A stretch of 64,000 nt of DNA, taken from Lachnospiraceae bacterium (GTDB lineage: Bacteria; Bacillota; Clostridia; Lachnospirales; Lachnospiraceae). The DNA is taken from positions 65,791 to 129,790 of the forward strand of contig SVFM01000002.1 of the NCBI GenBank assembly GCA_015056865.1. The letters are read 5' to 3'. Made by a program: the position numbers and the translations under genes. A model generated the notes under the pieces. The model ran no database searches. It worked only from the letters and a program-made list of their open reading frames with translations, and was not told where the DNA came from. Positions within the stretch are counted from its first letter, which is position 1, and every line of letters begins with the position of its first letter. Below, one piece after another: positions 3,226 through 61,684 of the stretch.

Positions 3226-3969
3226 TCACATCATAACCCGACTCATCTCTTTTTTCAATTGTTTCATGATCTTTTTTTCCAGCCTGGAAATATAGGACTG
3301 GGATATTCCCAGCATAGCAGCCACTTCTTTCTGTGTCATCTCCTGCCCGTCCGGCATACCAAGTCCAAATCTCAGACGTACAATGGTCTTTTCCCGATCC
3401 GACAATTTATCCACTGCTTTCATCAAAAGCTTTCTTTCCACCTCATTTTCCAAGTCTCTGTAGATCACGTCCTCTTCCGTTCCCAGAATATCCGAAAGCA
3501 GTAGTTCATTCCCATCCCAGTCTACATTCAAGGGTTCATCGATAGATACCTCCAAACGGGTTTTATTATTTCTGCGTAAATACATCAGGATTTCATTCTC
3601 TATACACCTGGAGGCATAAGTCGCTAGCTTAATGTTTTTGTCAGGTTTAAAGGTATTAATGGACTTGATCAGTCCTATTGTGCCGATAGAGATCAAATCT
3701 TCCACACCCACGCCGGTGTTATCAAATTTTTTGGCTATGTAAACCACCAGCCGCAGATTATGTTCTATCAGGATAGCCTTGGCTTCATCCTCATATTCTG
3801 TTCCCAGATCACCGATAACCTGATTTTCTTTTTCAGATTCCAGCGGCGGTGGAAGCACTTCTGTACCCCCTATGTAATGAATATCGTTTTGTTTCTGCAT
3901 CAGGAGATTTCGCTCCCGCCGTATCATTTTAAATTGTATTCTCCCGGGTATTGCCACTCTTAATATCAT
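3226..3969 (-). CDS. sigE: RNA polymerase sporulation sigma factor SigE (pro-sigma-E)
   Basis: [12 protein letters not shown] pro-sequence junction and sigma-70 regions 2-4. The ATG at 3969 follows a GGAGGA; the in-frame ATG at 3981 is an alternative start. It lies directly downstream of spoIIGA. Confidence 0.92.
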
Positions 3970-3988
3970 TGTATCCTCCATTCTACCG

Positions 3989-4789
3989 TCAGCCCATCAG
4001 CTTTGGGTGCAAAATCATTTCATAATTGTCGCCTGCGGATATTTTGTGTTCCCCCACACCCAGATACACGTGATGCAAGGTACTCAGCACACCCTCTGCC
4101 TCTATCTTCATCTCAGGTATCTCATATCCTTTCAGAATACCGTGGGCACATCCTACACTGTGATATGGTACAGCCCTATAAAACTCCGGCACGCCCTCCG
4201 GCCACAACCGTTCCATCACCTGAGGCGCCACTACTGACACAGGTTTGCCGCTAATCGGTTCTGTCAAATGATTGCCCGTATCCACCAGAGCTGTGATGCA
4301 GACACAGAGATCGTCTTTTACCAAAGTGACTTTACAGAAAGTATGTGGTTCTCTTTTTCTCCTTTCCATCAGATAGGAAAAAAGAAGATAAAGCATCCCG
4401 CCCGCTCCTACGACCGCAGCCGCTCCCGGTATCAGATCTGTAATCCCTTGCAGGTATCGCATTATAAACAGCAAAGCGCCTCCCATCAAAAAGGAATATC
4501 CTATGAGAATTTCCGTGAGCTTAAAGCAAGATTTTATATCCACCGGGCGAAACACCCATTTGACCATACACACTCCTGCAATCCCAGTCCCCATAGCCAA
4601 TTTTAGCAAGGCCGGTACATAGGGCAGAATCAGACTGAAACAATAAAAAAGTGCTCCTATCAATGCCCCGCCCATTAGTCTCCGTCGTGTGGCAGTACGC
4701 CGGACACCTCTGTTCATCAGCATCAACAAGTAAAAATTCATTACAAAATTCACCAGAAACAGGGAATCTATGTAAATTTCATAAGTCAT
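3989..4789 (-). CDS. spoIIGA: sigma-E processing peptidase SpoIIGA
   Basis: 266 aa with multiple N-terminal TM segments, and LVDTGN in the C-terminal domain, which I take as the aspartic protease motif. Position immediately upstream of sigE. Confidence 0.88.
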
Positions 4790-4827
4790 ATCCGGCCCCT
4801 TTCCGGACTTCTGTGCCCTTCACATTG

Positions 4828-4903
4828 ATTATAAAGTCTCCTTGGCAAAGATTTTGTCATTTTTTATAAGGAATCACCTATTTTCTCATGACCGGTTTCG
4901 ACA
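4828..4903 (-). promoter_or_regulatory. putative Spo0A-dependent spoIIG promoter
   Basis: On the minus strand: TGTCGAA (0A-box consensus, 4897-4903), then ATGACA (4855-4860) overlapping a TGACAAA 0A-like box, a 21-nt spacer, then TATAAT (4828-4833). The over-long spacer resembles the B. subtilis spoIIG promoter (22 bp). Confidence 0.45.
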
Positions 4904-4910
4904 CAGCAAT

Positions 4911-4964
4911 AAATATAAAATACCGGGCAGAATGGAAATATAAAGTTTCACATTCTACCCGGTA
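4911..4964 (-). terminator. Rho-independent terminator ending the accessory operon
   Basis: 14-bp stem with one mismatch (4921-4934 and 4951-4964), followed on the minus strand by TTTTATATTT. Confidence 0.6.
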
Positions 4965-4994
4965 TATCTTAGAAATTCTAACAGATCTTGTACT

Positions 4995-6068
4995 CTATGA
5001 AAGCACCTTTTTTAAATAGTTCATTCCAACCTTTCTCAACTCGGATATTTTCTCATCCACCACATCCCAATTCTGCAAAAAACTGATTTGAAATATCTTT
5101 GTCTGGGAATCTTCCTTCCATACTGCCCCCAAGGTATCCAGAAGGTTTTGAATCCTATTGTTACGCTTGGCCAGCTTCTGCAAGGGTTTTATATATAAAT
5201 CTTTGTGGAACAACACTGCAAACACCGTCCCGTGAAAAGAATTGGTATATACCTCTTTTGCATGATAAAAGCAGCTGAGCCATTCCTGTGGGCCACAACC
5301 TCCTGCCTGTGAACTCAGCCCTTGAATACTGAGCATAGAACTGATGCACACCAACTGGCATCCCAAAGCTTTCGCACGCTCCTGTGCGATCTTATACAGC
5401 TGCGAGTCAAACTCCGTCATATAAAGTACCACTGCTTCTTTACTGTCATGCACAAGCTCTGCCCACTCCTTGGCAGTCAAAAGCAACGTGGGATCCGGGC
5501 AAATCTGTGCTTCCCGTCCCAGCAACTCTTGAATAATCCCTGCACCGGATGCCTCTCTCACAGAAATTTGCGCAAAATCCTTTAACTGTTCATAATACCA
5601 CTCTCTGGTCTTCTCCGGCAATTCCTCCATACCAAAACTGGCCGCATAAGAAATCCGTTTTTGAGGCTCTGCAAAATCAAGAAACCAAAACGGATCCGCT
5701 CCTGTAATCTCGAAATTCCATACCTGATCGCTGCCTGCCACAAAGCAGGAAAACTCTTGATTCAGATCCCTTTCCTCTGTCAGATCTGCTTCCGGCAGAT
5801 AATTTTCCACAAACCGCTGAAATTCTTTCTTTCGCAGATCCATGTAGCGCTGCATCATTTTCTTGGCAACCACTGCCACTTTGTCGTATTTCAGATCCGG
5901 TGATACACCTGCTTCCTGCTCTGCGACGGCAGCTTTTGCACGCTTATCACGCACAAAGCAAACCTCTGCACCCAAAGTTTCCAGTGCTCTGCACAAACCA
6001 AAAGCCTGCAATGCGGCCCCATAATTTTCGTGATTATGGAAAGTAACAATTCCAACTCTATTCTTCAT
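4995..6068 (-). CDS. polysaccharide pyruvyl transferase family protein
   Basis: VGIVTFHNHENYGAALQAFGL N-terminus is typical of the PS_pyruv_trans family. 11-nt overlap with the upstream GT2 gene. Confidence 0.75.
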   Translation of the reverse strand: MKNRVGIVTFHNHENYGAALQAFGLCRALETLGAEVCFVRDKRAKAAVAEQEAGVSPDLKYDKVAVVAKKMMQRYMDLRKKEFQRFVENYLPEADLTEERDLNQEFSCFVAGSDQVWNFEITGADPFWFLDFAEPQKRISYAASFGMEELPEKTREWYYEQLKDFAQISVREASGAGIIQELLGREAQICPDPTLLLTAKEWAELVHDSKEAVVLYMTEFDSQLYKIAQERAKALGCQLVCISSMLSIQGLSSQAGGCGPQEWLSCFYHAKEVYTNSFHGTVFAVLFHKDLYIKPLQKLAKRNNRIQNLLDTLGAVWKEDSQTKIFQISFLQNWDVVDEKISELRKVGMNYLKKVLS

Positions 6069-6924
6069 GCTTTTCCTTTCTTTGAAGCGTATTTTTTACA
6101 GCTTGCAGGTACTGCCGACGCAGACACATCCGCTCTCTGTTCCAATACTCTCGTATCATGCGGCTATAAGTTTCCCTATCGCAATTACAGTGAGGCAAAA
6201 TGTCCAACTGCAATTTTTCAAAGCCGTTCACTCGTTCCATCCTTTGGGGAAAGGACACAAAACTCCGGGAATGATTCGCTCCATGGATGCGATAAAAATA
6301 TAATACTTCATCCAGATAACCACACTCCCCCAAGGATAACGGCGGAAGCAGCATCTGCATATTCTGTCCCTGTCTGGACACTGGTATCTGCCTCTGAGGA
6401 TAGCAGGAGAAAAAAGCCTCCGCCCGCACCAGGTAGCAGCCGCAATGGCAGTAGGTTTTGGAAAAGAGCAAATCCTCAAACCGGCATTTTATCTCTTTGT
6501 CACTCTCCTGCGCCAGAGTTTCTTTTTTCCCGTTCTGCATATCAATCTGCATTCCGTCGCAGCGCATGATAACAAACTCCGGATGTTCCTGCAGAAACTG
6601 CACCTTTTTAGCGATATTATTCTCACTCATCCAGTCATCTGCATCCACCCATGCCAAATATTCTCCCGTACAATAAGGCAAAGCAGTATTCATCGCACTG
6701 GCAGCGCCCTGATTACACTCATGCTGAAAAAATAGCACTTCCGTCAATTTACTCTTTAATTCATTCTCATACCTGTAAAAAACACCTGCCGAATCATCTA
6801 TTGAGCCATCATCCACCACCAACAGCTGAATATTAGGATAGGTCTGCGTCAATATCGATTGAAGCATTTCCTCGAAGTATGCTCCTGCATTATAGAGCGG
6901 AATGATCAGAGAAACTTTCTCCAT
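6058..6924 (-). CDS. glycosyltransferase family 2
   Basis: SLIIPLYNAGAYFEEML, VVDDGSIDDS and VDADD motifs (GT-A fold). Start moved to the ATG at 6924; the track start at 7026 lies inside the upstream gene. Confidence 0.85.
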   Translation of the reverse strand: MEKVSLIIPLYNAGAYFEEMLQSILTQTYPNIQLLVVDDGSIDDSAGVFYRYENELKSKLTEVLFFQHECNQGAASAMNTALPYCTGEYLAWVDADDWMSENNIAKKVQFLQEHPEFVIMRCDGMQIDMQNGKKETLAQESDKEIKCRFEDLLFSKTYCHCGCYLVRAEAFFSCYPQRQIPVSRQGQNMQMLLPPLSLGECGYLDEVLYFYRIHGANHSRSFVSFPQRMERVNGFEKLQLDILPHCNCDRETYSRMIREYWNRERMCLRRQYLQAVKNTLQRKEKHEE

Positions 6925-6928
6925 CAGA

Positions 6929-8311
6929 CTACTCCCCCTTCTTTTTCTGCCGAAGGTGCTCCCGCAAAATACGTGCATAGTCCATCTGTTCCTGGCCTCG
7001 CATACGCCTTCCGGTGTTATTTTCATGGATTCGGCGCTCTAACGTAACATATTCGATCCTGCAAGAAGGCAATCCGGTATTTCTGAACTTTAATTGCCAT
7101 GCCACTGTTTCACCGGTTTTCAACTGTAGATCAAATGGCCCTACCTTTCGGAATACTTCCTTGCGGATCAGAGAACATCCCGGCAGGCAACCGCTGTAAG
7201 TTCTTACCTTTCCCTCTTCACCGGCATTGGTGGATCGGCCCGGCAGATCATAAAAATCTCTGGCATAGGAAAACACTGCACTTAAACTGCCATCCTTTTG
7301 TATGGGAGCATACAGTGCTTCAAAGGCCCCTTCCGTCAGCCTGTCATCTGCATCCAAAAAGAAAAGCCAGGAATACTGTGCCATCGTGATCGCCGTATTT
7401 CTGGATGCTGCAGCTCCTCTATGCTCCGCCTTACATACAACTGCTCCGGCCTGCTTTGCCAATTCGGCCGTGTCATCCTCTGATCCGTCATCCACCACAA
7501 TAATTTCAACCGGCAACTCCGTAAACTTTTGTTTTTTTACACTCTCAATGCACTCCACAATAAATTTCTGTGCATTCCAGGCGGGAATTAAAACTGATAT
7601 GCCGTTTTTCTCCATGTTGTTTCTCCTCACTGCACGAATACTTTTGTGTACAATGTCCTTCTGGAACTGCTTGCGCTGCTCTTTGCACTGTTTTGCTCCG
7701 CTACCGGTCAGATTTTTCCCGTGGAGTCTGCGCAGATACAGTTTTTCTTCCATATATGCTCTGGGAATCTTTTGTAGCCAGATTTGATAGGTCCACTCTG
7801 AATCCTCACCTCGCTCCAGGTCTTCGGAAAACAATCCGCATTGATTCAGAATGCTCCTATGAAATAATGCGGTAGGAAGGCAGGCAATATCATGCTCTGC
7901 AAATTGACAACAACGCTTTACCCACTCCTCCTGCGCAGATACAGAAGACTCCAAAAAATTTTCGTACGCGGTAAACACGATCTTGCACTCCGGATGTTCT
8001 TTTAAATACGCCATCTGCAGCCGCAGCTTTTCCGGTTTCCAATAATCATCCGCATCAAGAAAGGCCAGATAATCACCTGTTGCCCTTTTCAGCGCGGTAT
8101 TGCGCGCCGCTGAAACGCCCCTGTGTTCCTGTCTGATATAATTGACCTGCGGAAAATTTGCAACCACTTTTGGGGTATCATCCGTGGAACCATCATCCAC
8201 CACCAGAATTTCCAGTTCCTCACCACAGTCCTGAGCCATCACACTATCGATACATTCTGCAAGAAATCTACCGTAATTGTATGTAACGATCAAAACAGAA
8301 ATTTTACTCAT
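6929..8311 (-). CDS. tandem (two-domain) glycosyltransferase family 2
   Basis: Two GT-A modules in one 460-aa protein: SVLIVTYNYGRF..VVDDGSTDDT..LDADD and SVLIPAWNAQKF..VVDDGSEDDT..LDADD. Confidence 0.85.
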   Translation of the reverse strand: MSKISVLIVTYNYGRFLAECIDSVMAQDCGEELEILVVDDGSTDDTPKVVANFPQVNYIRQEHRGVSAARNTALKRATGDYLAFLDADDYWKPEKLRLQMAYLKEHPECKIVFTAYENFLESSVSAQEEWVKRCCQFAEHDIACLPTALFHRSILNQCGLFSEDLERGEDSEWTYQIWLQKIPRAYMEEKLYLRRLHGKNLTGSGAKQCKEQRKQFQKDIVHKSIRAVRRNNMEKNGISVLIPAWNAQKFIVECIESVKKQKFTELPVEIIVVDDGSEDDTAELAKQAGAVVCKAEHRGAAASRNTAITMAQYSWLFFLDADDRLTEGAFEALYAPIQKDGSLSAVFSYARDFYDLPGRSTNAGEEGKVRTYSGCLPGCSLIRKEVFRKVGPFDLQLKTGETVAWQLKFRNTGLPSCRIEYVTLERRIHENNTGRRMRGQEQMDYARILREHLRQKKKGE

Positions 8312-8735
8312 CCGCTCCCTCTTCCTTCAGAACCGGCCAGCCAAACTCCTCATCAACATCATGCACCGGGTCTGCAGAAATCAGATCAACCAGATCTTCA
8401 TAACTGTCCAGCAGGAACTCTCTTCCTTCCATGAACCACATTTCCTCTGCAACAATCTCCTCATCATAGCAGGCATCTTCATCAGTAAGAATCATTTCAT
8501 AAGCCAACAAATTTGCAACGAAGCTGTCCAGTGCAACCTCTATATCCTCCGGACAGGAAGGGAGCTTTCTCAGCGCCTCTGCAATCTTGCCCACAGGAGC
8601 ACCTGACACCAGCTTCTCAAACACCTTTGAGGCCAGCATATTCATACCGTAATAAACACCACTAGTGGAATCGATCACCACTGCCTGCTCCTCTGCCATA
8701 TCAAAAAACATTTTTTCCTCATTCAACTTATACAT
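8304..8735 (-). CDS. PqqD-family (RRE-like) protein with an acidic C-terminal extension
   Basis: N-terminal ~80 aa (AVVIDSTSGVYYGMNMLASKVFEKL..IAEAL) looks like a PqqD peptide-chaperone fold. ATG at 8735 with AAGGAGA. 8-nt overlaps with both neighbouring genes. Confidence 0.65.
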   Translation of the reverse strand: MYKLNEEKMFFDMAEEQAVVIDSTSGVYYGMNMLASKVFEKLVSGAPVGKIAEALRKLPSCPEDIEVALDSFVANLLAYEMILTDEDACYDEEIVAEEMWFMEGREFLLDSYEDLVDLISADPVHDVDEEFGWPVLKEEGADE

Positions 8736-9774
8736 CTTTCAGTTCTCCTTTTATTAATTTTTTTAATGCATCTGCATTTTTTTTCGTATCTTTGCTGAGA
8801 ATCAGCTCATAAGAGGGGATTTCTTTTACACAATCAAATACCCGGTAAACAAAATTACTACCCTTTATCTGATTTTCCCCGTTCTGCCTTGCAGATGACA
8901 CTGCCATCTGCATCTTTCCCCTTTTGTGTTCATCCGGAACAATTTTAGGATCTTTTACTTCTTCCCCTTTGATCACACGGGGACACACCAGCGCACAGAC
9001 CTCCATACCATCCGCAAACTGTTCCCAATAAGGCAGCAGATCAATGATGGATCTGCCCGGACGATTCGGCACTTCTCCGATCACATGCTCTTTCAGCCCC
9101 GGCAGCATATTCAAGCTGTCTGAATTCAAAATGCCGCAGGAATACAGAGGATAAACTCTTCTGGTCTTCGTGTCCATGATCAAATAATCATCCGATACAT
9201 AGTCCATATTTTCCGTCAATGCACTGAGGGCTGTGGTAGACTTGCCGTTTCCGCCGTTTGCACTGAGCAGAACCCCTCTGCCATCTACCCCTACTGCCGC
9301 GGAATGAAGATATAAATATCCGTTGTTTTGAGCAAAATAATGGAATTCCCTGCGAAAAGGATGCCAGGTAGGGCTATATTCTCTCAAATCTCTTCCGTCA
9401 AAGCAGACATATTGGATATGGGTTGTCATGTCATAAGCCCCAAACCAGCGTCCATACCGATTGGCCCTGATGAAACCGGCCTCTCCTTCATACTCTATTA
9501 CATTGGCCCCCTCACCGACTCCGGGCGGCAGCACATCATCCAGCGCTGTATTCCAAAAACGGATCGCTCCGTTTGCTGCTGCGTCCGAATCCATGTACAC
9601 ATATTTGAGAGAAATTTTATACTCCTCATACAACTCCTGTGTAGGAAAAGAAAGCTCCAACACATGATGGCCAAAACGAATCTTAAAACTTGGAAATCCT
9701 TTTGTCTTCCCTTCCAGCCATGCAAAATAAGACTGCATCTGCGCTTTCGTAGCCTTTATGTGAGTTCTTTTCAT
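8728..9774 (-). CDS. HPr-kinase-related P-loop serine kinase
   Basis: HSAAVGVDGRGVLLSANGGNGKSTTALSAL resembles the HprK C-terminal P-loop. The ATG at 9774 makes an ATGA overlap with the upstream stop; the alternative start is 9837. Confidence 0.65.
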   Translation of the reverse strand: MKRTHIKATKAQMQSYFAWLEGKTKGFPSFKIRFGHHVLELSFPTQELYEEYKISLKYVYMDSDAAANGAIRFWNTALDDVLPPGVGEGANVIEYEGEAGFIRANRYGRWFGAYDMTTHIQYVCFDGRDLREYSPTWHPFRREFHYFAQNNGYLYLHSAAVGVDGRGVLLSANGGNGKSTTALSALTENMDYVSDDYLIMDTKTRRVYPLYSCGILNSDSLNMLPGLKEHVIGEVPNRPGRSIIDLLPYWEQFADGMEVCALVCPRVIKGEEVKDPKIVPDEHKRGKMQMAVSSARQNGENQIKGSNFVYRVFDCVKEIPSYELILSKDTKKNADALKKLIKGELKDV

Positions 9775-10943
9775 GAAAGTTTTCGGCTGTCCACATTCTT
9801 TATTTTCCGGAATATGTACAGAATCCACTCTCTCCATGTCTTACACCCCCACATCTTTTTAATATAATTCGGAAACGTAAACAAATCAATCAATAGACAA
9901 AACTTTTCGCTGACATAACGATGATAATTCCAATGATACTTCAGCATCAGCCAGGCATATCGGAACCGTTTCTTCCTCCGAATTTGTTGGCCCATTCGAT
10001 GGGCGGCAGAACGCTTCAGCATAACAGGGATTTTTTTTACGGTCATGTCAGCCACGTTTATTCTTCCTAATATGTCTTCCGGAACCTTTCCCGGCATAAT
10101 ATCACAGAAGATACCGAGCATTGTTTTTACCTGCAAGCCCAAGCTATACCTCTCACACAAAGCCAAAACCTTATCCCAATCAACCTGATGTTCCTCTAAA
10201 ATGGTATTGATATCGGTAATCCAGCGCATCCATTTTCGCTTCAGGATGGAATCCCCCTCTGCGGCATCCAGAAAAATATTGGTTAAGATCAAGATCAACA
10301 TGGACTCCGGAGCAGGTATAAAAACCTTTTCTCCCTGTATCTCTGTCGAAATCGCATCCTCCCAAAAAACAGCTTCATTGTTCTTATGCAGATTCTCTTT
10401 CAAGAAAAACTGATGGGCCTCCACATAGTATCGCTCTCTTTTTAACACCAAATGCGGCATGGAAACAAAACTTTCGTACTCCGAATTGCTTTGCATCAAC
10501 TTGCACAATCTGTCAAAATCCTCGTAGCGTACCCAGCAGTCCACGTCTCCCATGTAACAAATGCCATTCCTTTTGTAGTAGCCTTTCATGGCCCCGCCCT
10601 TCATGAGCATCACATCTATGCCCTGGCGGTTACATATCTTAAGAAATGCATGAAAGTCCTGCATCTGCCCAAGATTCATCATGCGATAGTACCGGACAAC
10701 ACCTCGCACTCTGGGGTTTAAAGACCTGGGAACCCCTTCATAATGCAGTCTGGTGGACAATTCTGCCAGCGCACAGACATGCTGCCCACTTAAATTTTCA
10801 AAGTCGATCGTTGCATAGTAATCAGCCAATTGCTGCGGCGTGGTATTTTTATCCACACACATTCTGAGAAACTTTATGTCCTCATCCTTCAGATTGAGAT
10901 TGCCAAAACAATGGTCTCTTAGGTACTTCTGCTTATCTCTCAT
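9771..10943 (-). CDS. nucleotidyltransferase family protein (NTP_transf_5-like)
   Basis: MLMKGGAMKGYY..GDVDCWV motif is typical of the uncharacterised nucleotidyltransferase family. The ATG at 10943 makes an ATGA overlap with the upstream stop; the track start at 11126 lies inside the upstream gene. Confidence 0.6.
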   Translation of the reverse strand: MRDKQKYLRDHCFGNLNLKDEDIKFLRMCVDKNTTPQQLADYYATIDFENLSGQHVCALAELSTRLHYEGVPRSLNPRVRGVVRYYRMMNLGQMQDFHAFLKICNRQGIDVMLMKGGAMKGYYKRNGICYMGDVDCWVRYEDFDRLCKLMQSNSEYESFVSMPHLVLKRERYYVEAHQFFLKENLHKNNEAVFWEDAISTEIQGEKVFIPAPESMLILILTNIFLDAAEGDSILKRKWMRWITDINTILEEHQVDWDKVLALCERYSLGLQVKTMLGIFCDIMPGKVPEDILGRINVADMTVKKIPVMLKRSAAHRMGQQIRRKKRFRYAWLMLKYHWNYHRYVSEKFCLLIDLFTFPNYIKKMWGCKTWREWILYIFRKIKNVDSRKLS

Positions 10944-12055
10944 CGCAGTTTGCTTCCTCCGATTGCTCCATATTTCTTCATGAAATCCTCCCAGCACAAC
11001 GTCCTGCAGTCTTTCATAAAAATTGCCCGCAGAGGCGTTTTTTTGATAGGCCCCTGCAATCTGGGCTGCAGTACCTGCTCCCCGGAATATTCCTTCAACA
11101 GACCTTCCTTCTGCAGCTGTCTGCAAAATTCACGTCCCTTTGCTGTATTTCCGATTACCAGCGAAACCCCTCTCTTTAATGCAAATTCCTCATCCTGCAG
11201 CCCGTGGAAATCTCCCAGTGTAATATCTCCCGGTCTGTTTAGAGAAGCGTACTTACACTGATAACAGGATGGTCTGGTGATAAATCCCCTCTGATACCAG
11301 AAGGAATAGCAATTGTTTGCCAATAGCTCGGCCCGCTCTGCACCATCCTCCAGCACCCAGGAGACTGCCCGCCCATACTCTGCACGCTTGTCCCGGAAAC
11401 GAAAGCTTTGCACTTTCTGCTGTTCTTTTTTTTCCAGAGCATTTATATATTTTGACCACACAGCCGGAGAACCCACTCCATTGCACACGATATCTACAAG
11501 CAGCAGATTATCACGCAGATTGCCTGACATCTGCTCTACCGTTTGTCGCAGTCCGTCAACCTGACAGGGTGTCCCGGAAAAAAGCACTTTGCTGCCTTGC
11601 CTTAGTTGCCTAAGCACTTCCCCAATACCGTCCCAAGCTTCACTTTCCACATACTTGGAATTGCGAAGCCGGTACAACTCCTCTTCACTCCTGCAACAGA
11701 TATGTCGAACCGTTTTGTCCTCATCCATAGCCGCGCCGCAGATCAGATTACCGCCAGCCTTCCAGAACATCCCGGCCAAAACCGAAAACGCTCCCCCGGA
11801 AGCACTCTCCCTAAGGAGCTGGGTATCTGTGGTCTGAAATCCATAATACCGCACATCCTCCCCAGCCTCTGGAACTTCTTGTTCAATGGGACACACACTC
11901 GCGCAACCACCGCACTCCACACAAAGCGCTTCATCTATCACCGGATAGACAAAACCTTCTTCATCCCTTTGCATGCGGATTGCATTCTGCGGACATATAT
12001 TTGCGCATGCTGCGCAGCCATAGCATTTTCCTTTGTTATCCATTTGTATTTTCAT
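10940..12055 (-). CDS. FrhB/FdhB-like (coenzyme F420 hydrogenase beta-subunit family) protein with N-terminal 2x[4Fe-4S] ferredoxin
   Basis: CYGCAACANICP and CVECGGCASVCP cluster motifs. This family commonly partners pyruvyl transferases in glycan loci. The start is 12055 or 12043. Confidence 0.7.
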   Translation of the reverse strand: MKIQMDNKGKCYGCAACANICPQNAIRMQRDEEGFVYPVIDEALCVECGGCASVCPIEQEVPEAGEDVRYYGFQTTDTQLLRESASGGAFSVLAGMFWKAGGNLICGAAMDEDKTVRHICCRSEEELYRLRNSKYVESEAWDGIGEVLRQLRQGSKVLFSGTPCQVDGLRQTVEQMSGNLRDNLLLVDIVCNGVGSPAVWSKYINALEKKEQQKVQSFRFRDKRAEYGRAVSWVLEDGAERAELLANNCYSFWYQRGFITRPSCYQCKYASLNRPGDITLGDFHGLQDEEFALKRGVSLVIGNTAKGREFCRQLQKEGLLKEYSGEQVLQPRLQGPIKKTPLRAIFMKDCRTLCWEDFMKKYGAIGGSKLR

Positions 12056-13736
12056 ATATCCAACCTTTTGCTTTTTTGCCACTGATTGCAATTATCTCAT
12101 CACAGATGCCCAAGGCTTCCTGCCTGTGTGTGATAATGACAACTGTTTTCTTTCCTCTCCATTCACCAACCATATCCATGATCTTCTGTTCTGTGGCATA
12201 ATCCAGAGCCGAAGTGGCTTCATCCAGCACCAGCACATCGGCCTGCTTGTAAAAGGCTCTGGCGATACCGATCCTCTGTCTCTGTCCGCCGGACAAACGC
12301 ACGCCCCACTGACCGATATAAGTATCCAGACCATCCGGCAGGCTTTGCACGTATTCTTTTAATTGAGCTGCTTCCAACGCTGCCCAAATACTCTCATCCC
12401 CCAGATGCTCCAGTCCAAACAACACGTTCTCCCGGATCGATCCGTCCAAAAGACTTACATTCTGAGGAATATAAGCGATTTGGGCTGCCCATCTATTCAT
12501 GGCTTCTCTGCTATGGTAAATATTCACACCACCAACCATTACCTCTCCGGACAGTGGCTCCAATAGCCCCAGCATCATGTCTACCAGAGTGGTTTTACCT
12601 GCTCCGGAAAGCCCCGTGATTCCCAACACAGTTCCCGCCTTCACAGTCAGATCCAGTTCCTCCAGCACCAATTCCTCTGTATCCGGATAGCGAAAGCTGA
12701 CCTTGTCCAGCACCAGTTGCCCCCAGGATGCATCAAGTGCGGAAGTAACCTCGCCCTCTGGCTCCCCGTCACCTTCCTGTTTTGCATTTTCTATGCCATC
12801 CAGCACTTCCATGGTGCGCCTTAAGGATATGGCAAGCCAATTTTTACCATTCAGCGCATTGTTGATCCTGGACATGCAGGGAAGCATGCGGATTGCTACA
12901 ACCGCAAATACCGCTAAGCTGCTTAGGGTATCCGAAGTGCCTACACCCATGTTTACGAACAAACTTACTGCCAGAAGCATGCCACAGATCGTCCCCATCT
13001 CCAGAATCATCCTGGGAATAGATCTGATATAAGTGGTTTTCACCTCCATTTTACAGGATTTTTCTACGCTGTCCAACAATTTTCCTGTAAAAAAAGGCTC
13101 CTTCTTTTCCGCCTTGACAATTTTAATACAATTCACTGTCTGAAGCAGCCACTTATTAAAATCGTTGGTCAACAGCCAGGATTTTTCGCTTTCTTTCGCT
13201 AAATAGGGTTTGATAAAAACTTGAATTCCTCCCATCAGCAACAGATAAAACGCAAAAATAATAACCGTTACCATGGGATTGACAACAAACAAAAATGCAC
13301 TGAGCACTGCAACCATCATAAATTCTGAGCACATATGAAGTAACTGGTTCAAAAGATCGAAGGTCCTTCTGATATCTCCATCCATATGCTGAATCAGTTC
13401 CGGCGTACTCATTCTGGCATGATACAGATAAGGACTCCGCAACAGGTTGCCAATAATTACCTTCTGCAGCATCAATCTGTTTTTTCCGGTAAACCAGAGT
13501 TGAAAATACGTTACTGCAGATAAATAGATATTTTTAACACAATACACTCCGCACATCAGAAGCAGTATTCGAATCACTTTATCCGGTTCCGATATACTGG
13601 TTAACGCAGGGATCACTAATGAAAGACCCACACACTCCAGCAAAGATGCAATAAAAAGCAGGATCAGCAGCAGGACACACATCCTCTTTTGTCTGCCTGT
13701 TAAAATTTTTCTGTAAGCCTTAATAATTTCTTTCAT
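12036..13736 (-). CDS. ABC exporter, fused permease/ATPase
   Basis: Six-TM N-terminal half, Walker A GLSGAGKTTL, signature LSGGQRQRI, Walker B VLVLDEATSALD. Confidence 0.9.
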   Translation of the reverse strand: MKEIIKAYRKILTGRQKRMCVLLLILLFIASLLECVGLSLVIPALTSISEPDKVIRILLLMCGVYCVKNIYLSAVTYFQLWFTGKNRLMLQKVIIGNLLRSPYLYHARMSTPELIQHMDGDIRRTFDLLNQLLHMCSEFMMVAVLSAFLFVVNPMVTVIIFAFYLLLMGGIQVFIKPYLAKESEKSWLLTNDFNKWLLQTVNCIKIVKAEKKEPFFTGKLLDSVEKSCKMEVKTTYIRSIPRMILEMGTICGMLLAVSLFVNMGVGTSDTLSSLAVFAVVAIRMLPCMSRINNALNGKNWLAISLRRTMEVLDGIENAKQEGDGEPEGEVTSALDASWGQLVLDKVSFRYPDTEELVLEELDLTVKAGTVLGITGLSGAGKTTLVDMMLGLLEPLSGEVMVGGVNIYHSREAMNRWAAQIAYIPQNVSLLDGSIRENVLFGLEHLGDESIWAALEAAQLKEYVQSLPDGLDTYIGQWGVRLSGGQRQRIGIARAFYKQADVLVLDEATSALDYATEQKIMDMVGEWRGKKTVVIITHRQEALGICDEIIAISGKKAKGWIYENTNG

Positions 13737-13739
13737 CCT

Positions 13740-14426
13740 CTATATCCCTTTATTACTCAGACAATAACCGCCCAGTGCTTTTCTCCAACCGATTTCATTT
13801 CCAATCCAGGCTTCTTCCGATTGCACCACATGGTTATCAAAAAAATATTGATCCAAACAAAGGCCCGGTTCAACTTGGGTATATACCCGCCGGACACCTT
13901 CTGCTCCACTGACATCGTGCACATTGATGAGTGCGATTTCCTTGCCCGGATAAATTTCTGCAAACTGTCTCAGAAAAAGACACAGCTGATCATGGTCCAC
14001 ATTCCACGTACCGATCAATCCAATCTTCTCAGCCTTTCTCAGATGATTTACCATTCTCACATAACGAACCCGCATTACCCGTAAAAAATCTTTTTTTGCC
14101 TCATCCACGCTCTCACTCTTGGGAAAATAGTGCATGCAGTATATGTCATTTTTCATGTCATAGACAATTCTGTGTGGACTTTCCTCAGGCGGAGTTTTCG
14201 TCTTTGACTCCTCAAGCTCCATAAAAAAATCCATAAATCTGGTTTGGAACAAGTGAATCAAAGAGTCCCACTGTTTCATCAACTGCCAGTCCAGAGGTGT
14301 TGCGCAGGTGTACAGATCACATTTCTTCATCCAATACGTGACCTGACAATTAGGACCAATATTTACATAAAAATCCAATTTCTTTTTTCCCTCATCCATT
14401 GTCCTTACCAACCATTCCTTTGTCAC
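13740..14426 (-). CDS. DUF1796-like putative papain-fold cysteine peptidase
   Basis: FYVNIGPNCQVTYWMKK..ATPLDW matches the G-x-N-C ... P-x-D-W pattern I associate with DUF1796. No search was run. Confidence 0.4.
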   Translation of the reverse strand: MTKEWLVRTMDEGKKKLDFYVNIGPNCQVTYWMKKCDLYTCATPLDWQLMKQWDSLIHLFQTRFMDFFMELEESKTKTPPEESPHRIVYDMKNDIYCMHYFPKSESVDEAKKDFLRVMRVRYVRMVNHLRKAEKIGLIGTWNVDHDQLCLFLRQFAEIYPGKEIALINVHDVSGAEGVRRVYTQVEPGLCLDQYFFDNHVVQSEEAWIGNEIGWRKALGGYCLSNKGI

Positions 14427-16269
14427 TTTGCCTCTTTATCGCTTTTCCCACGGCACGAATCATGGCTTCCTGCCTTTTGATCAGTTCCTCATCAATATGA
14501 TAAGTCTTCATATAATGCAATACTTCCCTAAAATGAGGCATATCCTTATGGGCAACAGCATACCTGATATACCACTCTTTGTTCTTATAAAGATCATCCG
14601 TATCAAACACCTCTTTGAAACGCTCCAAATTTCCCAGCGCATAAAGGCCCAAAACCGTTCTCACACACTTTCCGCAGCGGCCACAGTTATGAGCACGGGT
14701 TGCATAAATGCAAGGATGTAATGTATCATGGACCAACGGATAATCAGCCAGTTCCTTTAATTTCTGCATCCTGGGAACTGAGCCGCCGGAGGAATAAAAC
14801 ACCGTACAATCTGTTTGATAATACGCCAGCGGCAAGATTTGATAATAACCGGAATCACCCTCGTCAAAAGTAAATTGGGAAAAATCATAATCGGAAGAGT
14901 TGTAAAATGCACCAAACAATTTTTGAAATACCATTGCCACTGCCGGAAGGCGAAAGGCCTCAACCGCAAGATAGTTGACCTCCTCAAAACTCTGCAGATT
15001 AGAATTTACCCCTATCACCGCAAACCCATTTTTTTCACCAAACAATTTGGCATTTTCCACCATTTTCTCAAGTGTCTGGGCGCTGTCAGCCGCTTGGATG
15101 GCACCGTTGCTGGTTACCAGCAAATGAGTAAGTCTTCTGCTTTTGTGTAAAATATTATCATGTTTCATCAACGTATAACTACAGTCCACTCCACCGGTCC
15201 AACCGGTTCCGACAGCGCCTTCACAAGAAAGTTTGTCATCTGAACAATCTGCTTGAATTTGGATGTACTTCCGCTTGGGAATATGTGTTGCCAATGCGGG
15301 AATCAAATAGTCATTCAGCTGATGCAAAAGCCTTCTACTAACCGGTAATTCGCTTATAATATCCTGGCCCCGTTCCATAGCCATGGTTAGCAATCCTGCT
15401 ACCTGCGCGTCAGCTCTGTCTGTCACAAAATACTGCTCATATTTTTCTTCTGTCTCAAACCATAGAATGCTCTTGTGTGAATCCAATTCCACCGGTGTGC
15501 ACAGTCGACTCATTTTGCCACGCTTTTCTATGTAAGACCTTCCTATCCTGATTCCGGATGTTTTTTCCCGGGGTCGCTTCTGTCCCATACCGGAAAGATA
15601 AAACGTAAGAGAATCTATCGTCATGCAGTCTGCAAGCAACAAATTGCAACCCATCACTTCCCGAAACTGTGGAAACCATTCTTTCGTTTCCTCCAGACAT
15701 GGCATCACAAAAACCTTAAATAATTTTTGTAATGCAAGCACCCCAGCCAGAGTACGTATAAAAAAGCCCCCGGAAACAGACCGCCCCAACACCTCATCTA
15801 TGTTCATATTCAGAAAAACTGTTTTTAATCCCGGAACCTCCGTGTTGTCCGGCCCCAAAACCAGCAGATGACTTAAAGGATATTCACTGTTCTTTACTTC
15901 CTCTACCTGTCCCCAAAACACAGTTCCCACTGCGTGACTTGTCTCTATGTGCCCGGTATACAATGGTGCCTGTATATGCACCTTGCCCCTGTTAGCCGGC
16001 GGGCACAATGCAGGAATCAAATACTGTTCTATCTGATAGTGCAAACGCTCCGTCACCGGATATTCGCACACGATTTCCTCTCCTGTCTCTAAGGCATAAG
16101 AAACAAGAAGAACCACAAAAGCATCTGCACAGTGGATTGATAAATATTCTGCATAGTTCTTATCTGTTTCAAACCATAAACACTCTTGTCTACCATTTCG
16201 TTCAATTCCGGCACATAATCGTATCCGCAAACTATCTTGTTCTGTGTATATCTCTCTAATCTTAATCAT
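14392..16269 (-). CDS. hypothetical 625-aa protein with an internal duplication, a PP-loop-like motif and a C-terminal Cys cluster
   Basis: Residues 31-88 (LWFETDKNYAEY..YLIPAL) align with 269-326 (LWFETEEKYEQY..YLIPAL). TGGVDCSY lies at 358-365. HPC..HNCGRCGKC lies at 518-535. ATG at 16269. Confidence 0.6.
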   Translation of the reverse strand: MIKIREIYTEQDSLRIRLCAGIERNGRQECLWFETDKNYAEYLSIHCADAFVVLLVSYALETGEEIVCEYPVTERLHYQIEQYLIPALCPPANRGKVHIQAPLYTGHIETSHAVGTVFWGQVEEVKNSEYPLSHLLVLGPDNTEVPGLKTVFLNMNIDEVLGRSVSGGFFIRTLAGVLALQKLFKVFVMPCLEETKEWFPQFREVMGCNLLLADCMTIDSLTFYLSGMGQKRPREKTSGIRIGRSYIEKRGKMSRLCTPVELDSHKSILWFETEEKYEQYFVTDRADAQVAGLLTMAMERGQDIISELPVSRRLLHQLNDYLIPALATHIPKRKYIQIQADCSDDKLSCEGAVGTGWTGGVDCSYTLMKHDNILHKSRRLTHLLVTSNGAIQAADSAQTLEKMVENAKLFGEKNGFAVIGVNSNLQSFEEVNYLAVEAFRLPAVAMVFQKLFGAFYNSSDYDFSQFTFDEGDSGYYQILPLAYYQTDCTVFYSSGGSVPRMQKLKELADYPLVHDTLHPCIYATRAHNCGRCGKCVRTVLGLYALGNLERFKEVFDTDDLYKNKEWYIRYAVAHKDMPHFREVLHYMKTYHIDEELIKRQEAMIRAVGKAIKRQSDKGMVGKDNG

Positions 16270-16375
16270 ATCTTCATGCTTTTTCTTTTAAAAAGGGACT
16301 GACTTAAACTGCCAATCCCTTACAAACATTTTTTCACAAATTAGTAAATCCTAAAAACTTCTCCAATTCCAAAGC

Positions 16376-17539
16376 CTATTTTTTCTGCAGGAAATCCGGA
16401 ATCTTCAAGGACTTCTCTTCTACGGAAGAACGGATATCCGCCGGCTTATTGATGCCTGTAAGCGGCTTGGGTGCAGCTGCTGTACCGGAAGGCATAGCCT
16501 GCGGCTTAGGGCTGACCGGCTTGATAGACGGGGTGGGTATATATGTAAATCCACCGCCCAATCTGGTCTGTGCACCGGGCACATTGATCTTGTCCTCCAG
16601 ACCTGTAGCGATCACAGTAATGGTACAAGCATCTGTTCTTGCGCCATCATACATAGCACCGAAGATAATATTCACATCATCTCCTGCCAGTTCCTGTACG
16701 TAGCTTGCAGCATCAGATGCATCTGTCAGGGTAATATCACCGGATACATTGATGATCACATGGGTAGCACCTGTGATCGTAGTCTCCAGAAGAGGACTCT
16801 CCACCGCCATCTTAACAGCTTCCAGAGCCTTGTCGTCTCCCTTGCCGGAACCAATACCAATATGGGCAATACCCTTGTCCTTCATAACCGTCTGCACATC
16901 TGCAAAGTCCAGATTGATCACGGAAGGCACATTGATCAGATCTGTAATACCCTGCACGGCCTGCTGCAGAACTTCATCCGCCTTCTTCAATGCCTCGGGC
17001 ATGGTTGTCCGTCTGTCAACAATTTCAAGCAGCTTATCATTGGGGATAACGATCAGGGTATCCACATGCTCCTTAATCTTCTCAATACCGCTGAGTGCGT
17101 TTACCATACGCGCCTTCGCCTCAAAACGGAAAGGTTTAGTCACAACACCAACAGTCAGAATACCCATATCTTTGGCAATCTTAGCCACTACAGGTGCCGC
17201 ACCGGTACCGGTACCACCACCCATACCGCAGGTAACGAATACCATATCAGCCCCCTGCAATGCAGCCGTAAGCTCCTCAGTGCTTTCCTCAGCAGCCTTC
17301 TCACCGATCTCCGGTCTGGCACCGGCGCCAAGGCCCTTGGTCAGCTTCTCACCAATCTGCAGGAGCTTAGGTGCTTTGCAAAGCTGCAAAGCCTGTTTGT
17401 CGGTGTTCACTCCCACAAATTCCACTCCGTCTATACACTCATCGATCATTCTATTTACAGCATTATTTCCGGCACCGCCAACACCTACAACAATGATTTT
17501 AGCTGCGGATTCTGCTTCGTTTGTCTTTATCTCCAGCAA
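16376..17539 (-). CDS. ftsZ: cell division protein FtsZ
   Basis: [13 protein letters not shown] and [11 protein letters not shown] tubulin motifs. The only start upstream of these motifs is the TTG at 17539, 8 nt after a GGAGG. Confidence 0.97.
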
Positions 17540-59969: not shown

Positions 59970-61046
59970 TTACAGAATCGTTCCCCCTCCCAGAACATAT
60001 TCTCCTCGGTAAAACACAATCGCCTGTCCCGGCGTAGAGGCACGCACAGGCTCATCAAACAGACAGGCTACGGTTCCATCCTCCCGCTCCTCTATGGTAC
60101 ATGCCGCACCTTGATGGCTGTACCTGATCTTGGCCATCACCCGCTCCGGTCCTGTCAATCCGGCAACCGCCATATAATTTACCTTGTTGCAGAGAATTTC
60201 CCTGGTAAACGTGTCTTCATTCTCACCAATGACCACTTCATTTGTCTCCAGGCGGATCCTGCACACAAAAGCCCGGCGGCCCAAGGCAATCCCAAGTCCT
60301 TTTCGCTGACCGATGGTATAATGGGTGATTCCCTGATGCCGACCCAGCACATTTCCATCCAGATCCACAAAATTGCCGGGCCTGGGCGTCCTTCCACCGG
60401 CCTTACGCTCCACAAATGCCGCGTAATCTCCGTCCGGTACAAAACAGATATCCTGGCTGTCCGGTTTGCCGGCAACAAAAAGCCCCGCCTGCTCGGCCAT
60501 CTGACGGATCTCCTCCTTGGTATAACCCCCTATGGGCATAAGGGTTCTGGCAAGCTGCTCCTGGGTCAGATTGTAAAGCGCATAGGTTTGATCCTTTGAA
60601 GCAGTCACCGAGTTGCGCACTGCATATCTGCCATTAGAAAGCTTATCTATTCTGGCATAATGGCCGGTGGCAATATAATCCGCACCCATAGCCAGGCTGC
60701 GCTGTAACAGAGCCTCCCATTTCACAGACCGATTGCATACGATACAGGGGTTAGGCGTCCTTCCCTGCAAATACTCTTCCGCAAAATAGTCGATTACCTG
60801 TTCCTTAAATTCTCTCTCAAAATTAATTACATAGTGAGGAATATCCAGCTGCCCAGCCACCCTTGCAGCATCCTCTGCCGCTGAAAAACCACAGCAACCT
60901 CCATTTTCTTCCTGGGTTTCTTTCTGTTCCTGCCACATCTGCATAGTTACACCGATCACGTCATATCCTTGCTCTTTTAACAACAAAGCCGCAACCGAAG
61001 AATCCACTCCCCCGGACATTCCCACCACCACTTTTTTCTTCATCAT
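59970..61046 (-). CDS. mnmA: tRNA 2-thiouridine(34) synthase
   Basis: VVGMSGGVDSSVAA PP-loop. The ATG at 61046 makes an ATGA overlap with the nth stop. Confidence 0.96.
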   Translation of the reverse strand: MMKKKVVVGMSGGVDSSVAALLLKEQGYDVIGVTMQMWQEQKETQEENGGCCGFSAAEDAARVAGQLDIPHYVINFEREFKEQVIDYFAEEYLQGRTPNPCIVCNRSVKWEALLQRSLAMGADYIATGHYARIDKLSNGRYAVRNSVTASKDQTYALYNLTQEQLARTLMPIGGYTKEEIRQMAEQAGLFVAGKPDSQDICFVPDGDYAAFVERKAGGRTPRPGNFVDLDGNVLGRHQGITHYTIGQRKGLGIALGRRAFVCRIRLETNEVVIGENEDTFTREILCNKVNYMAVAGLTGPERVMAKIRYSHQGAACTIEEREDGTVACLFDEPVRASTPGQAIVFYRGEYVLGGGTIL

Positions 61047-61684
61047 TCCTCCACACCTGTCTTTCTGCAAATATCCGCCAGGCAACACTTTTCACAATAG
61101 GGTCTGGTTCTGGCTGTACAAACCGCCCTGCCGTGATCCACCAGTCTGTGGCAAAAATCATTTCCCTCCTCCGGGGGAATCAACTTCCACAGTTCCTTCT
61201 CCACCTTACCGGGTTCCTTGATCCCGTCCACCAGTCCCATACGGTTGACCAAGCGGATACAATGGGTGTCCGTCACAATAGCCGGCTTACCAAACACATC
61301 TCCAAGCACCAGATTGGCACTCTTACGCCCTACCCCCGGCAATGCCAGCAACGCATCCATCTGATCCGGCACCCGGCCCTCATATTGCTCTAACAGAACT
61401 TTCATGCAGGCACTGATATCCCTTGCCTTACTATGACCCAATCCACAGGGTTTCACTATGGCCTCAATCTCCTCCACCGGTGCCTGGGCCAAGGACTCCA
61501 GCGTAGGAAATTTGGCATAAAGATCCTGCACAACCACATTTACCCTGGCGTCTGTGCATTGGGCCGCCAACCGCACACTGACCAACAACTTCCAGGCCTC
61601 ATTATATTCCAACGTACAATCTGTCTGGGGATATTCTTCCTTTAATCGCCGGATGATCTCCAGCGCAAGCTCTTTCTTCGTCAT
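61043..61684 (-). CDS. nth: endonuclease III
   Basis: HhH motif LPGVGRKSANLVL and a C-terminal Cys cluster CTARTRPYCEKCCLADIC. Start moved to the ATG at 61684. Confidence 0.93.
   Translation of the reverse strand: MTKKELALEIIRRLKEEYPQTDCTLEYNEAWKLLVSVRLAAQCTDARVNVVVQDLYAKFPTLESLAQAPVEEIEAIVKPCGLGHSKARDISACMKVLLEQYEGRVPDQMDALLALPGVGRKSANLVLGDVFGKPAIVTDTHCIRLVNRMGLVDGIKEPGKVEKELWKLIPPEEGNDFCHRLVDHGRAVCTARTRPYCEKCCLADICRKTGVEE

Follow-up and report, generated by a model that had tools for sequence, protein, structure and literature searches.

What do the first two genes of a ten-gene cassette in a Lachnospiraceae genome contribute to the product of that cassette? The locus lies on the minus strand of a stretch of 64,000 nucleotides (nt; assembly GCA_015056865.1, contig SVFM01000002.1, positions 65,791 to 129,790), the whole of which is referred to here as the window. 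The two genes encode a 625-amino-acid (aa) protein and a 228-aa protein, and both are upstream of a gene for an ATP-binding cassette (ABC) exporter. An initial annotation had likened these proteins to the PP-loop cyclase and the papain-like leader peptidase of lasso peptide biosynthesis, and had suggested an undescribed peptide-maturation pathway, or a convergent variant, in which each lasso function has one candidate from a different protein family.

The fold class, motif conservation, duplication, and gene neighborhoods described below lead to a different answer. With a probability of roughly 0.6, both genes encode tailoring enzymes of a self-contained cassette that makes an exported glycoconjugate and is conserved in gut and rumen Clostridia, and they are not a convergent lasso cyclase and protease. 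The most likely role is an ATP-dependent, amidation-type tailoring of the exported glycoconjugate.

The PP-loop family and its gene neighborhoods

The 625-aa protein and its parts are arranged in the window as follows.

14392..16269, minus strand: 625-aa protein, two members of a ~385-aa PP-loop family fused in tandem (from homolog lengths and an internal repeat)
15538..16269, minus strand: N-terminal copy, residues 1-244, degenerate and shortened (partial match to the family profile)
14392..15537, minus strand: C-terminal copy, residues 245-625, with a ~105-aa N-terminal domain, a PP-loop domain, a putative zinc knuckle, and a helical tail (from a structure model, Foldseek matches, and invariant residues)
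15175..15198, minus strand: PP-loop motif TGGVDCSY, residues 358-365 (position verified in the sequence)
14665..14718, minus strand: Cys knuckle HPCIYATRAHNCGRCGKC, residues 518-535, of the form HPC-x8-C-x2-C-x2-C (C520, C529, C532, and C535; position verified)

Searches with the 625-aa protein against Pfam and NCBIfam give only a sub-threshold match to DUF6395 at the C terminus, and no NCBIfam model matches it at E ≤ 0.1. Its 94 homologs, whose names are uninformative (all "hypothetical protein"), are mostly single copies of 380-395 aa that span the C-terminal 60% of the query. Within the query, residues 8-137 repeat as residues 246-385 (35% identity, E 8e-22). The N-terminal copy matches the family profile at positions 2-104 and 163-252 only, reads AVGTVFWGQV at the PP-loop position, lacks the Cys knuckle, and is probably non-catalytic. 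All family invariants are kept in the C-terminal copy, to which the two motifs are confined. These motifs lie exactly where the initial annotation had placed them, and both genes are, as it had stated, upstream of the exporter, with all of these features on the minus strand. Its description of the 625-aa protein must be amended only in that the protein is an internal tandem duplication and carries the motifs in its second copy.

At the equivalent locus in other genomes, two to four separate intact PP-loop paralogs are found, of FSGGVDS type and WTGGVDS type. Besides the window, loci L010 and L020 carry the degenerate fusion, and in L021 a related fusion keeps the N-terminal domain only. In alignments of homologs of the 625-aa protein, the invariant residues are G360, D362, C520, N528, C529, C532, K534, and C535. 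Conserved without exception among 42 diverse members are the loop Gly and Asp, one Lys, and the C-x8-C-x2-C-x2-C pattern plus its adjacent Asn and Lys. The family consensus of the loop is [SW][ST]GG[VI]D[SC], and distant members carry the canonical SGG(V/I)DS. Because the motif residues are invariant across homologs, the TGGVDCSY and Cys-cluster motifs are not chance occurrences. Judged by its sequences, this ~385-aa family of putative PP-loop ATP pyrophosphatases is previously undescribed, with neither a Pfam or NCBIfam model nor a named member.

An AlphaFold2 (AF2) model of residues 245-625 (predicted local distance difference test score, pLDDT, 92.1; predicted template modeling score, pTM, 0.90) places the PP-loop motif between a strand (108-112 of the model) and a helix (117-126), each the first of its kind in an alpha/beta domain. 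When this model was compared with the Protein Data Bank (PDB) using Foldseek, it matched mainly PP-loop enzymes: MnmA with a probability of 0.99, QueC with a probability of 0.98 and a template modeling (TM) score of 0.55 normalized on QueC, and further TilS, ThiI, NcsA, LarE, NAD synthetase, and GMPS, with a few unrelated low-probability folds interspersed. The E-values of the PP-loop matches are only 0.01-0.2, and therefore the structural match is distant. A profile of the 42 members retrieved only NAD synthetase, MnmA, and GMPS from the PDB, aligned at SGGxDS with E-values of 0.5-2.5; the 625-aa sequence itself and a first profile of 49 sequences found nothing meaningful in PDB searches. The PP-loop fold, also named the adenine-nucleotide alpha-hydrolase fold, is called because the hit list is consistent and the motif is present. 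The Foldseek matches, the profile alignment at SGGxDS, and the invariant Gly and Asp bear out the SGGxDS-like PP-loop of an ATP pyrophosphatase that had been proposed from the motif.

The structural zinc site of QueC has the spacing C-x8-C-x2-C-x2-C. The suggested resemblance of the Cys cluster to this site is upheld by the four invariant Cys residues and by homolog L070, which passes the gathering score of Pfam QueC (PF06508; 23 bits versus 22) over the knuckle region, at profile positions 157-201. Three of the 42 family members match Pfam QueC, and L070, the one inspected, does so only over those positions. The 625-aa protein of the window has no match to the QueC hidden Markov model (HMM) and thus no full-length match to that family. 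Membership in QueC was also rejected on a comparison of the family profile with E. coli QueC by hhalign, which aligned only the 18-residue PP-loop and is too weak. Overall, sequence and model support a PP-loop ATP-pyrophosphatase domain with a QueC-type four-Cys knuckle, in a protein that appears to lie outside QueC, the asparagine-synthetase-type lasso cyclases, and the known sugar amidotransferases. Elsewhere in the window, a 373-aa open reading frame (ORF) at 59973-61091 (minus strand) has a canonical VVVGMSGGVDSS PP-loop and resembles MnmA (tRNA 2-thiouridylase). It holds the only other SGGxDS-type motif in the 64-kb window, where no AsnB-like SGGxDS ORF was found.

A scan of species-representative genomes with this family gave at least 217 matching stretches, and 79 loci were examined; the window brings the set to 80. 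The 79 loci span Firmicutes, Bacteroidota, Spirochaetes, Kiritimatiellota, Ignavibacteriota, Nitrospira, Vibrio, and archaea. A close clade from gut and rumen Clostridia comprises 22 of them, mostly at 40% identity or more, which together with the window form the 23 cassette loci; the remaining 57 are distant. In the 22 close loci, the PP-loop gene keeps company with two to four genes for family 2 glycosyltransferases (GT2) and with polysaccharide pyruvyl transferase (PS_pyruv_trans), FrhB-like, and ABC genes. The cassette of this clade consists of NTP_transf_5 (often two copies), kinase, PqqD, GT2, one to four PP-loop paralogs, two further GT2 genes, pyruvyl transferase, FrhB-like protein, and ABC exporter. 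Of the 23 cassette loci, 22 have a pyruvyl transferase gene and 19 an FrhB-like gene.

The trio of PqqD-like protein, kinase, and nucleotidyltransferase, which in lasso pathways tailors the peptide, was scored by profile in the same loci (PqqD 17/23, kinase 15/23, and NTP_transf_5 19/23), several of those scored without trio genes being truncated contigs. Loci L010 and L017 have ample flanks, lack the trio, and keep the glycan module of PP-loop, GT2, pyruvyl transferase, and FrhB-like genes, with a strong ABC match in L010. Co-occurrence with the trio, which the initial annotation had named as a test of its proposal, is thus found for the PP-loop gene within one clade and is not found for the DUF1796 gene that encodes the 228-aa protein.

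The 57 distant loci have no trio, save for weak single-gene profile matches in three of them. Their flanks carry Wzx-type Polysacc_synt (11+5), GT2, GT1/GT4, ATPgrasp_ST, PS_pyruv_trans, LicD, Acyl_transf_3, and PGA_cap genes. In Vibrio inusitatus, for example, the PP-loop gene is among GT1, GT2, and pyruvyl transferase genes and adjoins a Kdo transferase gene, and in Bacillus yapensis it is flanked by GT4 genes and an acyltransferase gene. Two proteins (P0076 and P0081) are fusions of the PP-loop unit with GT2. Thus, the family is nearly always found inside surface-glycan loci. Across loci L025-L079, genes for sugar-transfer-associated ATP-grasp (PF14397), YheC/D ATP-grasp, and octopine/nopaline-dehydrogenase-like proteins also recur beside distant members, which suggests that these glycan loci carry amino-acid or opine-type decorations.

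The DUF1796 protein

13740..14426, minus strand: 228-aa DUF1796 protein (Pfam E 8.9e-10)

The 228-aa protein matches Pfam DUF1796 (PF08795) over residues 20-166 well above the gathering score (39.1 bits versus 23), in agreement with the family first assigned to it. A word-indexed search gave only two relatives, and an exhaustive HMMER search, used instead, gave 339 at E ≤ 1e-3. Across 50 homologs, C27, D46, W47, D90, H99, and W214 are invariant. The assignment had been made from a G-x-N-C...P-x-D-W pattern, and both halves are present (GPNC from residue 24 and PLDW from residue 44); its Cys, Asp, and Trp are invariant, whereas its Asn is unconserved and the DUF1796 consensus reads GxxCRPA. The conservation that the initial annotation had proposed to check is therefore found in the alignments of both families, in the Gly and Asp of TGGVDCS, the Cys cluster, and the NC cysteine (C27). 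Homologs begin at query residue ~10-17, and the true start of the protein is probably Met10.

The AF2 model of this protein (pLDDT 93.6) has alternating strands and helices. A Foldseek comparison with solved structures gave nothing above a probability of 0.35 and no papain, NlpC/P60, or transglutaminase among the matches listed; the weak neighbors listed are a sirtuin, a nucleoside deoxyribosyltransferase, and a G-domain, none of them papain-like. The model does match models of giant-virus DUF1796 proteins (E 1.8e-10) and one protein annotated as a glycosyltransferase. These matches lend no support to the papain fold that had been expected, and in the model the invariant Cys27, His99, and Asp46/Asp90 appear to sit on a fold that has no solved relative. 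The giant-virus homologs are labeled "papain-like cysteine peptidase" purely through the Pfam name, and the family annotation may be misleading. Sequence and profile searches of the PDB also returned SNF2 and PDCD10, which were rejected as spurious helical matches.

The genomic associations of DUF1796 proteins likewise involve sugar transfer. Fusions join the domain to a GT10 fucosyltransferase (P0161), to GT8 and GT1 (P0192), and to GT2, GT8, and a TupA-type ATP-grasp (P0226), and neighboring genes encode GT1, GT2, methyltransferase, and epimerase proteins. Only two of the 80 PP-loop loci have a DUF1796 gene, namely the window and L034, and in the latter it occupies another position on the other strand. 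A module of DUF1796, ABC, and FrhB-like genes recurs with the gene order and gene overlap of the window in L081 (8001-11202) and L082 (745-3970), with identities to the proteins of the window of 33% for DUF1796 and 48% for the ABC exporter, the latter measured in L081. The module there belongs to a glycan locus other than the cassette, lacks an upstream PP-loop gene, and in both cases is followed at once by the end of the contig. A 741-aa protein upstream of DUF1796 in L081 was tested as a relative of the PP-loop protein and proved unrelated.

A further family of unknown function, DUF1919 (PF08942; Pfam E 1e-36), is found at L003 (11110-11802), L006, L009, L012, L008, and L017; in the first four of these cassettes its gene directly follows the PP-loop paralogs, a position equivalent to that of DUF1796 in the window. 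An hhalign comparison of DUF1796 with DUF1919 gave a weak match (E 0.03) with their Cys- and His-containing motifs aligned, which hints that these two families of exopolysaccharide and capsule loci are remotely related. The literature on DUF1796, DUF1919, DUF6395, and PF14907 contains almost nothing functional, and the giant-virus literature is equally uninformative.

The cassette and the search for a peptide

The ten genes directly follow ftsZ (16376-17539) on the minus strand, tightly packed or overlapping, from 16269 down to 4995. They encode, in order, the 625-aa protein, the 228-aa protein, the ABC exporter, and the FrhB-like, NTP_transf_5, HprK-related kinase, PqqD-like, double-GT2, GT2, and pyruvyl transferase proteins. 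The eight that follow the first two are listed here.

12036..13736, minus strand: 566-aa ABC exporter, a half-transporter without a peptidase domain (ABC_membrane and ABC_tran)
10940..12091, minus strand: FrhB/FdhB-like protein with a 2x[4Fe-4S] domain (Pfam FrhB_FdhB_C E 1.2e-22; Fer4_7)
9771..11126, minus strand: NTP_transf_5 nucleotidyltransferase (Pfam E 4.9e-23)
8728..9837, minus strand: HprK-related (ScmC-type) kinase (Hpr_kinase_C; NCBIfam HprK_rel_A and HprK_rel_B sub-threshold; its ortholog matches PF27840 ScmC)
8304..8735, minus strand: PqqD-like protein resembling a peptide recognition element (RRE), with a conserved ~50-aa C-terminal tail (Pfam PqqD E 1.4e-4, residues 18-82)
6929..8311, minus strand: 460-aa double-GT2 protein (two stretches that match Pfam Glycos_transf_2, E 4.7e-67)
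6058..7026, minus strand: GT2 glycosyltransferase (Pfam E 1.7e-28)
4995..6068, minus strand: polysaccharide pyruvyl transferase, the final cassette gene (Pfam PS_pyruv_trans E 2.3e-23)

The closest NCBIfam similarities of the exporter are to PglK, LssB, HepA, and MsbA, each below its cut-off. The NTP_transf_5 protein shares with PsmN the annotation of uncharacterized nucleotidyltransferase. Machine-called ORF starts are probably too far upstream at 13740-14426, 9771-11126, and 8728-9837. At L084 (GCA_052848995.1), which has a layout identical to that of the window and an ortholog of the 625-aa protein at 91% identity, gene calls give 390 aa (versus 451) for the nucleotidyltransferase and 348 aa (versus 369) for the kinase.

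Beyond the pyruvyl transferase gene come spoIIGA and sigE, and because ftsZ and spoIIGA/sigE flank the cassette, it is regarded as an insertion into the ftsZ-spoIIGA junction. As a side observation, the entire cassette lies between ftsZ and these sporulation genes within 3226-17539 of the window. A tie to sporulation or to spore-surface glycans is conceivable.

Three of the cassette proteins have precedents that act on peptides. In lasso pathways, proteins of the PqqD, kinase, and nucleotidyltransferase types work on the peptide (PMC6993621). With the lasso peptide pseudomycoidin, PsmK phosphorylates the C-terminal Ser and PsmN is needed for the addition of hexoses onto the phosphate (PMC6993621). 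Kinase, nucleotidyltransferase, and GT2 genes are often found together in lasso clusters of rumen Firmicutes (PMC7533575).

The PqqD-like protein of the cassette has 262 homologs that are 44-65% identical to it, the best 120 of which are all 136-149 aa long; a single source name, "hypothetical protein," appears among these 120. In the window and in loci L001-L021 and L034, it bears a C-terminal extension of ~50 aa that ends in a near-invariant DLI(L)ADP(V/I)H(D/E)VDxExGWP(I/V). No Ser or Thr is conserved in this tail, which could dock in cis, bind a partner, or serve as a substrate.

A comparison of small ORFs (20-99 aa) within ±10 kb at the 23 cassette loci revealed none that at least three loci share, a search whose reach does not extend to very short or unlinked precursors. 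The cassette of the window has no internal gaps, and no plausible peptide gene was seen in the gaps on either side of it (106 and 205 nt). A basic ORF of 24 aa at 4786-4860 (minus strand), between the pyruvyl transferase gene and spoIIGA, was considered as a precursor and rejected; it overlaps the start of spoIIGA. Although 22 of its 24 residues are kept in L084 (21413-21487), the sole genome with such conservation, this is uninformative because L084 is a 91% relative, and the ORF is probably not a gene.

Probable glycan tailoring, its rivals, and known systems

The substrate class and reaction chemistry of the 625-aa protein we infer as follows. Its second copy would be the catalyst, and its first copy would serve as a scaffold or partner that replaces the separate paralog of other genomes. 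If the C-terminal copy acts as other PP-loop enzymes do, it would bind ATP, adenylate an oxygen of the substrate (a carboxylate or an amide carbonyl), and release pyrophosphate, after which a nitrogen nucleophile, or less likely sulfur, would displace AMP. Since the genomic company of the PP-loop family is polysaccharide biosynthesis, the substrate would most likely be a sugar of the glycan made by the adjacent GT2 and pyruvyl transferase enzymes. Candidate target groups are the carboxylate of a pyruvate ketal, the carboxylate of a uronic acid, and an acetamido group, and the product might be an amide or an amidine. The DUF1796 protein would be an accessory Cys/His glycan-tailoring enzyme linked to the ABC exporter and the FrhB-like gene, rather than a leader peptidase.

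Several points weigh against this interpretation. No single match of the 625-aa protein or its family to a solved PP-loop enzyme is significant (the best Foldseek E-value is ~0.01, and HMM values are 0.5-2.5). The association with pyruvyl transferase is strong only in the close clade (22/23 loci versus at least 7/57 distant loci). Neither the substrate nor the nucleophile goes beyond inference, and the homologs of the 625-aa protein include no characterized relative. Finally, the cassette lacks a priming phosphoglycosyl transferase, Wzx, and Wzy but encodes a PqqD protein of RRE type, strongly conserved, together with a kinase and a nucleotidyltransferase, and a purely lipid-linked polysaccharide route would leave these three conserved genes unexplained.

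This last point is where a hybrid peptide-glycan pathway, which we consider unlikely, has its appeal. The RRE-type PqqD protein would recruit a peptide or protein, encoded elsewhere or represented by its own acidic tail, for phosphorylation by the kinase; NTP_transf_5 would put the first sugar on the phosphate, in the manner of PsmK and PsmN on pseudomycoidin; the GT2 enzymes and pyruvyl transferase would extend and decorate it; and the PP-loop paralogs would amidate carboxylates of the glycan or peptide before secretion by the ABC exporter, so that the trio replaces a lipid-priming enzyme. The published biochemistry of PsmK and PsmN (PMC6993621), the kinase, nucleotidyltransferase, and GT2 combination in rumen Firmicutes lasso clusters (PMC7533575), the tight conservation of the trio with the glycan genes, the conservation of PqqD, highest among the small proteins of the cassette, and the lack of any priming phosphoglycosyl transferase or Wzx-type flippase in the cassette all fit such a scheme. 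It fits poorly with the lack of a conserved candidate peptide gene within ±10 kb in the 23 loci, with a PqqD tail devoid of conserved Ser or Thr, with the trio-free module of L010 and L017, and with the ordinary polysaccharide loci in which the PP-loop family is otherwise found. A more specific version is more doubtful still: the trio would prime the glycan on a phosphorylated peptide or protein, even the tail of PqqD, instead of a lipid carrier, the GT2 enzymes and pyruvyl transferase would extend it, and the one to four PP-loop paralogs would amidate or ligate carboxylates before ABC export. As a product class, a peptide- or protein-primed phosphoglycan is rather improbable.

A convergent lasso-like pathway to a ribosomally made peptide is far less likely. 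In this scheme, the PP-loop protein would form a lactam or peptide linkage, DUF1796 would remove the leader, PqqD would act as the RRE, and the ABC exporter would secrete the product. The PP-loop domain does have the fold class of a lasso cyclase catalytic domain, DUF1796 does have an invariant Cys and His, and the trio and exporter are adjacent. The lasso-counterpart idea nevertheless fails because DUF1796 is not conserved with the cassette (two of 80 loci, with the L034 copy elsewhere and on the opposite strand), because no precursor was found in the 23 loci or in the flanking gaps of the window, and because the wider contexts of both families differ: DUF1796 forms fusions with glycosyltransferases, and PP-loop genes are found mostly in polysaccharide loci that lack the trio, with some members fused to GT2. 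Furthermore, the 625-aa protein has no Asn_synthase match, the 228-aa protein has no Transglut_core3 match and no papain-like structure among the Foldseek matches listed, and other cassettes have two to four intact PP-loop paralogs, a surplus for a single macrolactam step. The notion of one candidate for each lasso function is therefore abandoned; what survives of the proposed pathway is its enzyme classes, PP-loop and DUF1796, and not the analogy itself. Equally slight is the chance that the PP-loop protein inserts sulfur in the way of TtuA, NcsA, LarE, or MnmA, its four-Cys site binding an Fe-S cluster instead of zinc and the FrhB-like 2x[4Fe-4S] protein giving it electrons or sulfur for a thio-sugar or thioamide. 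The sulfurtransferases MnmA, ThiI, NcsA (with a [4Fe-4S] cluster), and LarE are among the top structural neighbors, and the cassette encodes an Fe-S protein that co-occurs in 19 of the 23 cassette loci. However, the Cys spacing and the Pfam match point to the structural zinc site of QueC, the cassette has no gene for a cysteine desulfurase or a sulfur carrier, and FrhB-like genes adjoin pyruvyl transferase genes in these loci irrespective of the PP-loop gene.

If glycan tailoring is correct, working out the reaction of the ~385-aa PP-loop family would extend polysaccharide chemistry by an ATP-dependent tailoring step. The most interesting part of the locus is the trio locked to a glycan module. 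To our knowledge, earlier work on this trio has dealt only with its tailoring of lasso peptides, and the cassette offers a tractable system of ~11 kb for its function without a lasso core. The peptide-primed alternative, if true, would unite the trio known from lasso tailoring with a new family of ATP pyrophosphatases in a phosphoglycan system anchored on a ribosomal peptide. The name "papain-like peptidase" has spread with DUF1796 to many bacterial and giant-virus proteins, and the present result urges caution in its use.

Comparison with known systems helps to place both proteins. The 228-aa protein is a bona fide member of DUF1796 (PF08795), a family whose label of putative papain-like cysteine peptidase is not reproduced among the Foldseek matches listed. 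Unlike the lasso leader peptidase B2, it matches only DUF1796 and has no transglutaminase-core match, although a conserved Cys and His exist. The PqqD/RRE protein, HprK-like kinase, NTP_transf_5 protein, and ABC exporter of the window have counterparts in paeninodin- and pseudomycoidin-type clusters. The catalytic domain of the lasso cyclase C (AsnB-like, PF00733) belongs to the same broad PP-loop superfamily as the new family. In contrast with that cyclase, the 625-aa protein has no Asn_synthase match, and where the cyclase has an N-terminal glutaminase-like domain, its own is a different unit of ~105 aa; moreover, there are several PP-loop paralogs per locus, DUF1796 is not conserved with the cassette, and no adjacent precursor peptide gene was found in the 23 cassette loci.

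With QueC (PF06508), the new family shares a Rossmann-like PP-loop domain followed by a four-Cys knuckle, as reflected in the Foldseek match (probability 0.98, TM 0.55 on QueC) and in the L070 match over the knuckle. It differs in its additional ~105-aa N-terminal domain and ~90-aa helical C-terminal domain and in its context, which is glycan biosynthesis and not queuosine genes. Sugar amidotransferases of the WbpG/PseA/WbuX type (TIGR03573) and of the WbpS type are ATP-dependent PP-loop enzymes of O-antigen and flagellin-glycan loci that convert a carbonyl or carboxyl to an amidine or amide. TIGR03573 does not match the 625-aa protein at E ≤ 0.1, and the domain architecture differs. In function, these amidotransferases of N-acetyl sugars and uronic acids would be the closest analogy for the role proposed here. 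Overall, the locus presents a new family and a cassette variant within known kinds of system.

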